From NCBI RefSeq assembly GCF_003334385.1, contig NZ_QOWN01000011.1: a DNA stretch of 64,000 nucleotides; one strand, given 5' to 3'. Below are positions 17,544 through 32,908 of this stretch, in pieces. The notes under the pieces were generated by a model that was not told the origin of the DNA, made no database searches, and saw nothing but the letters and a program-made list of their open reading frames with translations. The position numbers and the translations under genes are program-made. Source of the DNA: Escherichia coli (GTDB taxonomy: Bacteria; Pseudomonadota; Gammaproteobacteria; Enterobacterales; Enterobacteriaceae). Within the stretch, counting starts at the first letter, position 1; every line of letters starts with the position of its first letter.

Positions 17544-18830
17544 TTACGCGTTATAGGCATTCTCGCCGTGGCTGTTGACATCCAGCCCTTCTCGCTCCTG
17601 CTCTTCCGGTACACGCAGACCAACCGTCAGATCCGCCAATTTGTAGCCGATAAATGCCACAACACCGGACCAGACGATCGTAATGGCGATGCTTTCCAGC
17701 TGTACCAGCAACTGATGGCCCATCGTCACACCTTCAGCGAAGCCCACGCCGCCCAGCGAGCTGGCGGCAAAAATCCCGGTCATGATACAGCCGACAATGC
17801 CACAAACGCCGTGCACACCGAAGACATCGCAGGGATCATCCACCCGCAGCAAGCGTTTGAGCATGGTAACGCCCCACAAGCCCGCCAGACCAGCTACCAC
17901 GCCGATAATCAACGCGCCGCCAACCCCAATGTAGCCGCAGGCTGGCGTCACGCCGACCAGACCGGCAATCGCGCCAGAACACGCCCCCAGCAGTGAAGGC
18001 TTACCACGCAGCGCCCATTCACCGAAGATCCAGCCAAGAATTGCCGCCGCCGTTGCGACCACAGTATTCACAAATGCCAGTGCCGCGATTTCATTCGCCG
18101 TGCCCGCTGACCCGGCGTTAAAGCCAAACCAACCGATATAGAGAATGGCAGTCCCGGTGAAGACCATCGGCAGGTTGTGCGGTTTAAACGCCTCTTTACC
18201 GAAGCCCACGCGTTTTCCTATCAGATACGCGCCCACCAGACCGGCGATTGCGGCGTTAATGTGCACCACGGTGCCACCCGCGAAATCCAGCGCACCGTGA
18301 GAAGCCAGCAAACCACCGCCCCACACCATATGCGCAATCGGAATGTAAGAGAGCGTCAGCCATACCACCACGAAAATCAACACAGCTGAGAAGCGGATTC
18401 GTTCCGCCAGCGCCCCAACTATCAAGCCGACGGTAATGCAGGCAAACGATCCCTGAAACGCCACGTGGATATACTGATAAATGCTGCCCATCACCGCCGT
18501 CAGTTCGATGTTTTTCAGCATCAACCAGTTAATGTTGCCGAAGAAGTTGTTGCCCTCACCAAACGCCAGCGAGTAACCGTAAACCACCCAGAGAATACAG
18601 ACCAGTGCAAATGTCACCGTCACCTGCGTCAGCATCGACAGCACGTTTTTGCCGCGAATCAACCCACCGTAAAACAGGGCAATCCCCGGAATAGTCATAA
18701 ACAGCACCAGCGCAGTACAAATCATCATAAACGCATTGTCGGCTTTATCGGCCACCGCAGGTGCAGCCATTACCAGTCCCGGAAGCATCGCCAGTGAAGC
18801 AAGCCCAGTTTTTATCGTCGCTATCTTCAT
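17544..18830 (-). CDS. amtB: ammonium transporter AmtB
   Basis: 428-aa ORF MKIATIKTGLASLAMLPGLVMAAPAVADKADNAFMMICTALVLFMT...; matches E. coli AmtB. Confidence 0.96.
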   Translation of the reverse strand: MKIATIKTGLASLAMLPGLVMAAPAVADKADNAFMMICTALVLFMTIPGIALFYGGLIRGKNVLSMLTQVTVTFALVCILWVVYGYSLAFGEGNNFFGNINWLMLKNIELTAVMGSIYQYIHVAFQGSFACITVGLIVGALAERIRFSAVLIFVVVWLTLSYIPIAHMVWGGGLLASHGALDFAGGTVVHINAAIAGLVGAYLIGKRVGFGKEAFKPHNLPMVFTGTAILYIGWFGFNAGSAGTANEIAALAFVNTVVATAAAILGWIFGEWALRGKPSLLGACSGAIAGLVGVTPACGYIGVGGALIIGVVAGLAGLWGVTMLKRLLRVDDPCDVFGVHGVCGIVGCIMTGIFAASSLGGVGFAEGVTMGHQLLVQLESIAITIVWSGVVAFIGYKLADLTVGLRVPEEQEREGLDVNSHGENAYNA

Positions 18831-18859
18831 TTTTCGTTCCTGTTGCTGTGTGCCAGAGA

Positions 18860-19198
18860 TTACAGCGCCGCTTCGTCGGCTTCGCCGGTACGAATACGAA
18901 TGACGCGTTGCAATTCAGCGACGAAGATTTTGCCGTCGCCAATTTTTCCGGTGTAAGCCGCCTTACTGACGATATCGATCACTTCATCGAGTTGGTCATC
19001 AGCAATCGCCACATCAATTTTTACTTTTGGCAGGAAATTGACGCTGTATTCCGCCCCCCGGTACAGCTCGGCATGCCCTTTCTGACGCCCGAAACCTTTC
19101 ACTTCGGTGACGGTCAGGCCCTGAATACCAATGGAAGATAACGCTTCACGAACGTCTTCCAGCTTGAATGGTTTGATTATCACGGTCACCAGCTTCAT
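18860..19198 (-). CDS. glnK: nitrogen regulatory protein PII-2 (GlnK)
   Basis: 112 aa from ATG at 19196-19198 (MKLVTVIIKPFKLEDVREALSSIGIQGLTVTEVKGFGRQKGH...); GGAGG ribosome-binding site; the longer track ORF extension was rejected. Confidence 0.95.
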   Translation of the reverse strand: MKLVTVIIKPFKLEDVREALSSIGIQGLTVTEVKGFGRQKGHAELYRGAEYSVNFLPKVKIDVAIADDQLDEVIDIVSKAAYTGKIGDGKIFVAELQRVIRIRTGEADEAAL

Positions 19199-19250
19199 AG
19201 ATCCCCTCCGGTCAGAATTCGGTAATGGTTCTGCTACACGAAGAAGGTAT

Positions 19251-19266
19251 TGCAAGCGGTGTGCCA
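19251..19266 (-). promoter_or_regulatory. sigma54 (-24/-12) promoter of glnK-amtB
   Basis: Minus strand reads TGGCAC-ACCGC-TTGCA, an exact match to the TGGCAC-N5-TTGCA consensus, about 55 nt upstream of the glnK start; an NtrC-like dyad gcactatgacagtgc lies at 19321-19335. Confidence 0.8.
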
Positions 19267-19378
19267 GAAATGAAAAACGAGAAAGAGAGCAGGAAGTTAA
19301 GAAGTTTGAAAATGAAAACGCACTATGACAGTGCACAGTGCGTTACATTTTTGCACCAACGATGAAATATTGCGCTAT

Positions 19379-22925
<3,547 letters not shown>

Positions 22926-30553: not shown

Positions 30554-32908
30554 CTATTTTGCAGTCACAACCTGCATACCAGACGGTTCATTTTGCAGCG
30601 CCAGAGTCAGAACTTCCTCAATGCGCTTCACAGGATGAATGTCCAGATCGGCAATTACGTTGTCAGGAATCTCTTCCAGATCGCGTTTATTTTCGAACGG
30701 AATTAGCACTGTTTTAATCCCGCCGCGATGCGCTGCCAGGAGTTTTTCTTTCAAACCACCGATCGGCAGTACCTGACCACGCAGAGTGATCTCACCGGTC
30801 ATTGCCACATCGGCACGAACCGGGTTACCGGTCAGGCAAGAAACCAGCGCGGTGCACATAGCAATACCGGCACTCGGACCATCTTTCGGCGTCGCACCTT
30901 CCGGTACGTGGACGTGGATGTCACGTTTTTCGTAAAAATCAGGGTTGATCCCCAGTTTTTCCGCACGCGCACGAACCACCGTTAACGCCGCCTGAATGGA
31001 CTCCTGCATCACTTCGCCGAGCGAACCGGTATAGGTCAGTTTGCCTTTACCCGGAACACATGCGGTTTCAATGGTCAGCAAGTCACCGCCCACTTCCGTC
31101 CACGCCAGACCGGTTACCTGACCGACACGGTTTTCGTTATCCGCGCGACCATAGTCGAAACGCTGAACACCGAGATAGTCATGCAGGTTATCGCCGTTAA
31201 TTTCGATATGTTTTAATGACTTATCGAGCAGTAACTGCTTAACCGCTTTGCGACACAGTTTGGAGATTTCACGCTCCAGACCACGCACGCCCGCCTCACG
31301 GGTGTAGTAACGAATAATGCCGATAATGGCGCTATCGTCGACGGTCAGCTCACCTTTTTTCAGTGCATTACGTTCAATCTGCTTCGGCAGCAGGTGACGT
31401 TTGGCGATGTTCAGTTTTTCATCTTCGGTATAACCGGAGAGGCGAATCACTTCCATACGATCCAGCAGCGGTGCCGGAATGTTCATGGAGTTCGACGTCG
31501 CGACAAACATCACGTCGCTGAGATCGTAATCCACTTCCAGGTAGTGGTCGCTGAACGCTACGTTCTGCTCTGGATCCAGCACTTCAAGCAGTGCAGAGGC
31601 CGGATCGCCACGCATGTCAGAAGACATTTTGTCGATCTCATCGAGCAGGAACAGCGGGTTTTTCACGCCCACTTTCGCCATTTTCTGGATCAGTTTACCC
31701 GGCATAGAACCGATGTAAGTACGGCGGTGACCACGGATTTCCGCTTCATCACGCACGCCGCCCAGCGCCATACGGACATATTTACGCCCGGTGGCTTTGG
31801 CAATGGACTGACCAAGAGAGGTTTTACCTACCCCCGGCGGCCCTACCAGGCAGAGGATCGGTCCCTTGATTTTGTTGACACGGCTTTGAACCGCAAGATA
31901 CTCAAGGATTCGATCTTTCACGCGCTCCAGACCATAATGGTCGGTATCAAGGATTTCCTGCGCCTGACGCAGGTCTTTTTTGACCTTGCTACGCGCATTC
32001 CACGGCACCTGTACCATCCAGTCGATATAACCACGCACTACGGTCGCTTCTGCCGACATCGGAGACATCATTTTCAGCTTCTGCAACTCTGCTTCCGCTT
32101 TCTCTTTTGCCTCTTTCGGCATCTTCGCCGCGTCGATTTTGCGCTTCAGGGCTTCGTTTTCGTCCGGCGCGTCGTCCATTTCACCGAGTTCTTTCTGAAT
32201 AGCTTTCATTTGCTCGTTCAGATAGTACTCACGCTGGGATTTCTCCATCTGCTTTTTAACGCGGTTGCGAATGCGTTTCTCAACCTGCAGCAGATCGATT
32301 TCCGATTCCATCATTGCCATCAGATATTCCAGACGTTCGTTAACGTCGGACATCTCCAGAACAGACTGTTTGTCAGCCAGTTTCAGCGGCATATGTGCAG
32401 CAATGGTATCCGCCAGACGCGCCGGATCGTCGATGCTATTCAGCGACGTCAGCACTTCTGGTGGGATTTTTTTGTTCAGCTTGATGTAGCCTTCGAACTG
32501 GCTGATTGCAGTACGCACCAGCACTTCCTGTTCCCGCTCATCAATGGTCGGCGACTCCAGATACTCCGCCTTCGCAGAAAAGTGTTCGCCATTGTCAGAG
32601 AGCGCAGAAATACGCGCGCGCTGTAACCCCTCGACCAGCACTTTGACGGTGCCGTCAGGCAGTTTCAGCATCTGCAATATAGAGGCCACGGTCCCGACGG
32701 TGAAAAGATCGTTTACACCCGGCTCATCCGTTGAAGCTTCTTTCTGCGCGACCAGCATAATTTTTTTATCATGGTCCATCGCCGCTTCCAGACAACGGAT
32801 AGATTTTTCCCGCCCGACAAATAAGGGGATGACCATGTGCGGATAAACCACCACATCGCGCAGCGGCAATACGGGGATTTCAATGCGTTCAGAACGCTCA
32901 GGATTCAT
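30554..32908 (-). CDS. lon: ATP-dependent Lon protease
   Basis: 784 aa from ATG at 32906-32908 ([38 protein letters not shown]...); Walker [10 protein letters not shown]; the 799-aa track ORF has a 15-codon extension that I rejected. Confidence 0.96.

Follow-up and report, generated by a model that had tools for sequence, protein, structure and literature searches.

The promoter of the Escherichia coli glnK-amtB operon, glnKp, was reportedly described by van Heeswijk et al. 1996 and by Atkinson et al. 2002, and in the latter work its enhancer is said to be weaker than that of glnAp2. At glnAp2 the NtrC sites are centred at -108 and -140 (PMC1865078; PMC3870243). The two promoters have in common a sigma-54 core of the -24/-12 type and two upstream NtrC dimer sites (the second one at glnKp being a probable site) on the same face of the DNA, activation by phosphorylated NtrC (NtrC~P) through looping, and inactivity without the activator. 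They differ in that the glnKp sites are spaced more tightly, by 20 bp instead of 32 bp, lie at a shorter distance from the start, at about -87 and -107, and match the consensus less well, and in that glnKp has neither the overlapping sigma-70 promoter (glnAp1) nor the downstream 'governor' sites of glnAp2. Transcription from the glnK promoter is stated to depend exclusively on NtrC phosphorylation, the NtrC-specific activity (transcript per NtrC molecule) of ammonium-starved cells was found to exceed that of ammonium-rich cells 400-fold, and according to a proposal relayed in the same source glnK and nac are activated only once NtrC exceeds a threshold (all PMC3870243). In Salmonella Typhimurium the glnK-amtB promoter (STM0462) has an orthologous sigma-54 site, TGGCACATCCTTTGCAAT, which differs from that of E. 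coli in the spacer bases within the core and is bound in ChIP-chip; the promoter is sigma-54-, NtrC- and nitrogen-dependent, no sigma-70 promoter is predicted for it, and its lacZ fusion yielded 1.1 Miller units in nitrogen-replete medium versus 1778 under nitrogen limitation (PMC3844500). The nearest relative of Salmonella among the spacers compared below is Citrobacter, in which the enhancer and the core are 78 bp apart.

We have hardly any doubt that the feature analysed here is glnKp itself, the promoter of the E. coli glnK-amtB operon that depends on sigma-54 and is activated by NtrC. The window, by which we mean the whole 64-kb stretch of E. coli DNA under study, is 100% identical to E. 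coli K-12 MG1655 between positions 18800 and 19700, across mdlB-glnK-amtB, and the same segment is found in 5424 of 5426 complete E. coli genomes. A window coordinate w corresponds to MG1655 position 471822 + (19198 - w), a conversion obtained from numbers in PMC4591121. The identities of glnK, amtB and mdlB were taken from the RefSeq annotation of the identical MG1655 sequence, and they bear out the initial annotation, which had named the glnK-amtB operon and placed the end of mdlB at 19379 from sequence alone. The minus strand of the window also carries mdlA, upstream of mdlB (RefSeq annotation), and mdlB lies upstream of glnK in the same orientation in 15 of 15 Enterobacterales. The landmarks of the locus are the following:

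17544-18830, minus strand: amtB coding sequence, co-transcribed with glnK (RefSeq annotation and ORF list)
18860-19198, minus strand: glnK coding sequence, PII-family protein of 112 aa, with the ATG at 19198 (RefSeq annotation and ORF list)
19202-19208, minus strand: Shine-Dalgarno (SD) sequence of glnK, GGAGGGG, conserved in the alignment of 15 Enterobacterales
19379-19381, minus strand: stop codon of mdlB, TGA (read 19381-19379), the upstream edge of the mdlB-glnK spacer

The mdlB-glnK spacer is 180 bp long, and it contains the core of the promoter and its predicted start:

19251-19267, minus strand: sigma-54 core of glnKp, CTGGCAC-ACCGC-TTGCA, exact consensus; this 17-mer is the motif of sigma-54 ChIP-seq peak OS03
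19238-19240, minus strand: predicted transcription start, deduced from the position of the -12 GC, with +1 at about 19240

The core carries the GG and GC elements of sigma-54 promoters at their fixed spacing (TGGCAC-N5-TTGCW), with GG -25/-24 at 19265-19264 and GC -13/-12 at 19253-19252 relative to the predicted +1. The initial annotation had reported TGGCAC-ACCGC-TTGCA on the minus strand at 19266-19251, which proved exact, and had proposed scans for RpoN and NtrC sites as a check. The RpoN scan returned this site as the sole exact match to TGGCACN5TTGCW in the 64-kb window, where 0.12 are expected and where 11 of 100 shuffled sequences contain at least one; with one mismatch allowed, the three motifs observed compare with 3.56 expected, i.e. 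the chance level. By itself the sigma-54 string is therefore only modestly unusual in the window. What makes it compelling is its place: it lies on the sense strand, within a 180-bp spacer and 52 nt upstream of the glnK ATG, a location at which the chance expectation for an exact core is about 2e-4 (by arithmetic). The one-mismatch sigma-54-like motifs at 52335 and 59229 were discarded, as their count is that expected by chance and they are missing from the ChIP-seq tables.

A promoter scan of positions 18700-19700 revealed no sigma-70-like promoter, and an alternative housekeeping promoter for glnK was accordingly rejected; the locus thus combines the absence of a sigma-70 promoter (our scan) with the requirement for rpoN (published data). 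No Rfam family was detected in 19100-19500 on either strand at E <= 1. The start at 19238-19240 that had been predicted by the initial annotation agrees with the position 19240 implied by the rule that places the start at +19 from the motif centre (PMC4591121), both being predictions, and a start at about 19240 would give glnK a 5'UTR of 42 nt. As cited in 2015, EcoCyc flagged glnKp as 'Predicted', and we found no mapped 5' end for this promoter in the accessible literature.

Published binding data place both sigma-54 and NtrC at this spacer. Peak OS03 of the sigma-54 ChIP-seq study has the motif CTGGCACACCGCTTGCA and a predicted start 42 bp before glnK (PMC4591121), the glnKp sequence is listed among 18 known sigma-54 promoters in PMC2831329, glnK-amtB is peak 1 of the NtrC ChIP-seq data, enriched 39.7-fold in nitrogen starvation (PMC4066584), and in gSELEX both the RpoN holoenzyme and NtrC bind the mdlB>glnK spacer (PMC8743547). 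The initial annotation had read the locus as being under nitrogen-limitation control, a reading at odds with unaffected glnK expression in rpoN or ntrC mutants. The ChIP-seq, gSELEX and mutant expression data all agree with this reading: deletion of rpoN lowers glnK expression 18.8-fold (PMC2831329), and in a glnG deletion strain glnK mRNA is not readily detected, while complementation restores it (PMC4066584). The promoter was thus already known, and both the sequence observation and its interpretation hold. What we add to the known glnKp is a two-site reading of the enhancer, a comparative series of enhancer spacings and a terminator-like fold. The published NtrC ChIP-seq and gSELEX peaks are too low in resolution for the assignment of individual sites. 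The NtrC ChIP-seq bin, MG1655 471741-471821, corresponds to window positions 19279-19199 and lies over the core promoter and the leader rather than over the inverted repeat described below, so that the sequence contacted by NtrC is not resolved by this peak; a nucleotide-resolution NtrC footprint at glnKp was not found in the accessible literature.

Upstream of the core, the inverted repeat GCACTATGACAGTGC (GCAC-N7-GTGC on the plus strand) occupies 19320-19334, as the initial annotation had it. It forms the central part of the stronger of two sites that we assign to the enhancer:

19319-19335, minus strand: NtrC site 1, TGCACTGTCATAGTGCG, centred at about -87 (conservation, enrichment, ChIP-seq and gSELEX peaks in the spacer)
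19339-19355, minus strand: probable NtrC site 2, weaker, TGCAAAAATGTAACGCA, centred at about -107

Site 1 matches the published NtrC consensus TGCACCAnnnTGGTGCA at 10 of 14 specified positions, and a 17-mer scan revealed no better match within the 180-bp spacer. The distance of about 65 bp given for the dyad by the initial annotation is acceptable, the gap to the -24 element being 53 bp and the centre-to-centre distance 68 bp. The statement that the enhancer abuts the mdlB stop codon does not apply to the dyad, which lies 44 nt away, and becomes roughly correct if site 2, at about 23 nt, is included. The proposed NtrC scan did find the dyad, but at a frequency of such strings in the window that equals the chance level: GCAC-N7-GTGC occurs twice, compared with 2.1 expected, and the NtrC 17-mer with up to three mismatches has 31 matches, compared with 35 expected. 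Taken alone, the dyad is indistinguishable from chance in this window; it is convincing because of its position and conservation, and not because of its frequency.

We therefore rely for the dyad on a comparison of 79 orthologous glnK loci, which range from Escherichia albertii to Pseudomonas and Betaproteobacteria and most of whose spacers are not alignable to one another. In 36 of these 79 loci a sigma-54 core with at most one mismatch precedes glnK on the sense strand by no more than 250 nt, where 0.007 per locus are expected as predicted from the rest of the same loci. In the 63 loci with a recognisable core, NtrC-type dyads centred 55-140 bp upstream of it number 78 at up to three mismatches (3.6 expected) and 35 at up to two (0.6 expected); the Poisson P-values attached to these comparisons are inflated because the loci are related. 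Among the 15 Enterobacterales whose spacers were aligned (9 Enterobacteriaceae and 6 genomes of other families), only GCAC...T.GTGCG, TGGCA...TTGC and the SD/ATG region form invariant blocks. Phylogenetic footprinting thus independently recovers the same two elements, the sigma-54 core and the dyad. In the divergent E. coli alleles that we sampled there are few substitutions, all of them outside the sigma-54 core and the dyad. The spacing, measured from the centre of site 1 to the centre of the core motif, varies among genera as follows:

Escherichia: 68 bp
Citrobacter: 78 bp
Superficieibacter: 99 bp
A Klebsiella sp. and Photorhabdus: 111-112 bp
Enterobacter, Yersinia, Rahnella and Acerihabitans: 121-123 bp

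These values change in steps of about one helical turn (resultant length R = 0.90 at a period of 11 bp, versus 0.46 at 10 bp), and such helically phased spacing is what short-range looping on one face of the DNA predicts.

The block TGGTGCAAAAATGTAACGCA, directly upstream of the dyad, is conserved in Enterobacteriaceae and reaches position 19357 (TGGTGCA...). It contains the weaker dyad TGCAAAAATGTAACGCA, our site 2, whose centre is 20 bp, i.e. two helical turns, upstream of that of site 1 and which matches the consensus at 9 of 14 specified positions; like site 1, it is not significant on its own in the window. Because the block is conserved, because Yersinia shares the same 17+3+17 layout (CGCACTTTTGTGACGCA-TAT-CGCACTCTTTTGGTGCG), and because the block carries the GCAnnA half-motif named in the gSELEX study (PMC8743547), we conclude that the enhancer probably holds two NtrC dimer sites side by side, with centres at about -87 and -107. 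The sequence thereby shows the arrangement typical of NtrC enhancers, in which dyads resembling TGCACCAnnnTGGTGCA, usually two or more, lie upstream on one face of the DNA. Regulators of the NtrC family require oligomerisation, and two adjacent sites fit this requirement. Another candidate for the second site was the 17-mer that ends in GGTGCA and has its centre at 19360. It is separated from site 1 by 33 bp in the upstream direction, a distance also seen in Citrobacter; TGCAAAAATGTAACGCA was preferred since it alone has both halves conserved and recurs in Yersinia.

These elements can be combined in the following mechanism. Bound to the -24/-12 element (19267-19251), sigma-54 RNA polymerase would form a closed complex unable to open alone. 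Upon exhaustion of nitrogen NtrB would phosphorylate NtrC, and NtrC~P dimers would bind 19335-19319 and 19355-19339, whose centres precede the start by about 87 and 107 bp. The resulting NtrC~P oligomer would reach the polymerase through a loop of the short stretch of DNA in between and drive promoter opening with ATP, and transcription would begin near 19240, giving a glnK-amtB mRNA with a 42-nt leader. What the literature shows is the occupancy by sigma-54 and NtrC and the dependence on rpoN, glnG and nitrogen status; the start at about 19240, NtrC at site 2 and looping without a bending protein are steps that we infer.

The enhancer may have a second use at the level of RNA. On the mdlB/glnK-sense strand a terminator scan flags the enhancer region itself, and the two NtrC sites, when transcribed, yield a hairpin and a U-tract located 35-62 nt after the mdlB stop codon:

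19317-19344, minus (mdlB/glnK-sense) strand: RNA hairpin AACGCACUGUG-CACUGU-CAUAGUGCGUU, with an 11-bp stem and a 6-nt loop (terminator scan and folding)
19307-19318, minus strand: U/T-tract TTTTCATTTTC, directly after the hairpin and together with it a candidate intrinsic terminator

The hairpin arises from the linker between NtrC sites 2 and 1 together with the right half of each site. Its stability alone is -14.6 kcal/mol, and a 63-nt segment, in which an upstream A-tract pairs with the U-tract, folds at -20.5 kcal/mol (z = -4.3). The segment has what intrinsic terminators are recognised by at the sequence level, i.e. a stable, G+C-containing stem-loop directly followed by a U-tract, past a stop codon. 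With canonical terminators it shares a stem of 9-11 bp, a 6-nt loop, a U-rich tract, an upstream A-tract and the nearby stop codon; it is unlike them in that only about half of the stem pairs are G-C, the U-tract is interrupted (UUUUCAUUUUC) and the stem is made of two transcription-factor half-sites.

We suggest that the enhancer DNA binds NtrC and, as RNA, could end transcription of the upstream mdlAB operon in the manner of an intrinsic terminator, a proposal for which we see the scales as nearly balanced, tipping slightly to the negative side. Read-through from mdlB would transcribe the hairpin (19344-19317) and then UUUUCAUUUUC, and would lead to release at about 19316-19307 (about 471,703-471,713 (+) in MG1655), upstream of the poised closed complex. 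Apart from the scan, the fold and the beginning of the hairpin only 35 nt after the mdlB stop, such a dual use is favoured by the phylogenetic distribution. All 9 Enterobacteriaceae have an extended stem of 9-13 bp (-11.8 to -17.8 kcal/mol) and 7-9 T among the 10 nt after the dyad, whereas the 6 genomes of other families (Yersinia, Rahnella, Acerihabitans and Photorhabdus) all keep the dyad but have only 6-8 bp of self-pairing (-6.4 to -9.8 kcal/mol) and 1-3 T, so that the extended hairpin with T-run is present in 9/9 versus 0/6. Since these other families keep the dyad without either feature, NtrC binding demands neither the T-run nor the longer stem. In the alignment of the hairpin from the 9 Enterobacteriaceae 92% of the cells are paired, and a single pair varies in a compensatory manner, being C-G in 5 sequences and U-A in 4; its 5' base belongs to the linker that separates the NtrC 17-mers. 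Photorhabdus, in turn, has a separate terminator-like hairpin instead. On the other side of the balance, the compensatory switch is probably a single evolutionary event and its shuffle control (3/500) is only suggestive; the NtrC half-sites impose part of the pairing, and adjacent palindromic protein sites give hairpin potential for free; the T-run could serve DNA bending for looping instead. Enterobacter sp. Bisph1 has, besides this hairpin, a stronger canonical terminator downstream. A simple scan detected no alternative mdlB terminator in Yersinia and Rahnella, so that this place may need no terminator whatsoever; the expectation that separate mdlB terminators occur wherever the T-run is missing was accordingly dropped, as the correlation is only partial (Photorhabdus yes, Yersinia and Rahnella no). 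The searchable Term-seq supplements contain no entry for RNA 3' ends of mdlB or glnK, and a search for literature linking mdlB, glnK and a terminator returned nothing relevant. The embedded terminator is the sole mildly new idea in this analysis; the promoter itself is known.

A different, exclusive reading is that the inverted repeat is an mdlB terminator only, with NtrC acting elsewhere or without a specific site at 19320-19334. In agreement with it, the dyad occurs at chance frequency in the window, its region is terminator-like in the scan and in the fold, and the NtrC ChIP-seq bin is not exactly on the dyad. We nevertheless regard this reading as very improbable: TGCAC-N7-GTGCG is invariant also in the families that have neither the T-run nor the extended stem, the distance from the dyad to the sigma-54 core stays in helical phase, a strong enrichment of NtrC-consensus dyads at this relative position upstream of glnK extends as far as Pseudomonas and Betaproteobacteria, and the 180-bp spacer offers no better NtrC match. 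That the motif pair is a functionless chance occurrence hardly deserves any credence, even though an exact sigma-54 consensus turns up somewhere in 11% of the shuffled windows and the dyad is no more frequent than expected, for published ChIP-seq results and the expression data from mutants have refuted it, and the conservation also speaks against it. The feature is thus best explained as glnKp, on top of which the literature suggests a further, accessory layer that is not an alternative to the promoter. It concerns one short segment:

19240-19247, minus strand: CT-rich segment CCTTCTTC, just upstream of +1, corresponding to the published anti-Shine-Dalgarno 'insulator' of glnKp

The first example of such insulators in sigma-54 promoters came from glnKp: a 50-bp glnKp fragment silences a downstream gene in synthetic read-through constructs independently of rpoN and by means of CT-rich anti-Shine-Dalgarno segments, the effect depends on orientation, and the analysis of 123-134 glnKp mutants identified a critical CT-rich region of 7 nt centred at -4 (bioRxiv 10.1101/086108), which corresponds to window positions 19247-19241. 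In the native context CCTTCTTC might act as a translational insulator that pairs with the SD of glnK in mdlB read-through RNA and blocks its translation, while being absent from the mRNA initiated by sigma-54; we lean against this tentative proposal, and more clearly so than in the case of the embedded terminator. Besides the published reporter and mutant data, it is backed by our folding of the native sequence, which predicts a mean probability of the SD being unpaired of 0.01-0.12 in read-through RNA versus 0.33-0.44 in glnKp mRNA (from 19240). However, composition-matched shuffles of the upstream 70 nt already give an SD accessibility of about 0.15, the E. coli value falls below the shuffles in only 95% of cases, and the published work used synthetic read-through circuits with a synthetic ribosome-binding site and not the native glnK leader, for which the effect is a folding prediction. 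Folding of the corresponding regions in Citrobacter, Superficieibacter, Enterobacter Bisph1 and Yersinia did not reproduce the effect, so its conservation beyond Escherichia is not supported, and the insulator would be at best a lineage-specific extra.

The value of these results lies mainly in quality control, in that a textbook regulatory element was recovered from sequence alone at single-base accuracy; the understanding of nitrogen control is unchanged by them. They also have some bearing on practice, given that glnKp is a standard reporter of NtrC activity and a widely used part of synthetic circuits. For the cloning of a 'glnK promoter' it may matter that the enhancer probably has two sites, that the fragment may carry the terminator of the upstream operon, and that in read-through RNA a ribosome-binding site further downstream can be masked by the sequence surrounding +1. 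If the dual use is real, the E. coli version is the most compacted one, with a candidate terminator, an enhancer and a promoter within 130 bp, and mdlAB transcription and NtrC occupancy could influence each other. The series of spacings, which runs from 68 to 122 bp by about 11 bp per step, is an illustration of the face-of-helix constraint on short-range enhancer looping. Its most compact dyad-to-core version is that of E. coli, where a third upstream NtrC-like site retained by the other genera, GCACCAnAATCAGGCA, has been lost as well.

Upstream of the two-site NtrC enhancer of glnK-amtB, alignment of the Enterobacterales mdlB-glnK spacers (alignment A1) revealed a third NtrC-like site, which is conserved in Enterobacter, Yersinia, Rahnella and Acerihabitans, and which is absent from the aligned spacers of E. 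coli, E. albertii and Citrobacter. In some Enterobacter this third site overlaps an inverted repeat that extends across the stop codon of mdlB.

A1 columns 60-80, ~180-195 bp upstream of the sigma-54 core, glnK loci L004-L006 and L009-L012: third NtrC-like site, GCACCAnAATCAGGCA

Within E. coli itself, the glnK 5'UTR of isolate 30859_5#287 is interrupted by an IS1 element, with the Shine-Dalgarno sequence on one side and the sigma-54 promoter on the other (the break corresponds approximately to window position 19213). With this insertion, NtrC should no longer control glnK-amtB, or the operon should come under transcription derived from IS1.

L085 (NZ_OZ040756.1) 1767-2556: IS1 element, annotated as IS1 family transposase

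Mechanical ORF calling extended glnK upstream across the enhancer and promoter (18860-19336, minus strand, 158 aa), with a GTG start at 19336. We rejected this start as an ORF-calling artefact; in the annotation, glnK begins with the ATG at 19198, and GGAGGGG lies just ahead of it.

Elsewhere in the window, two sigma-54-like motifs with one mismatch each were found, a number at chance level for 64 kb, and neither is present in the sigma-54 ChIP-seq tables.

52335-52350, plus strand: one-mismatch sigma-54-like motif, TGGCACGTTGTTTGAA
59229-59244, plus strand: one-mismatch sigma-54-like motif, TGGCACCACCCTTACA

To our knowledge, no activator is known for OS02, a sigma-54 site upstream of clpP with a non-canonical -24 element (TTGTCA). 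The window also contains this site, for which in vivo occupancy by sigma-54 has been reported (ChIP-seq, PMC4591121).

35284-35300, minus strand: OS02, TTGTCATGAATTTTGCA, same site as in PMC4591121

Besides the dyad in the glnK enhancer, the window holds a single exact GCAC-N7-GTGC match; the total of two equals the chance prediction.

32638-32652, plus strand: exact dyad, GCACTTTGACGGTGC
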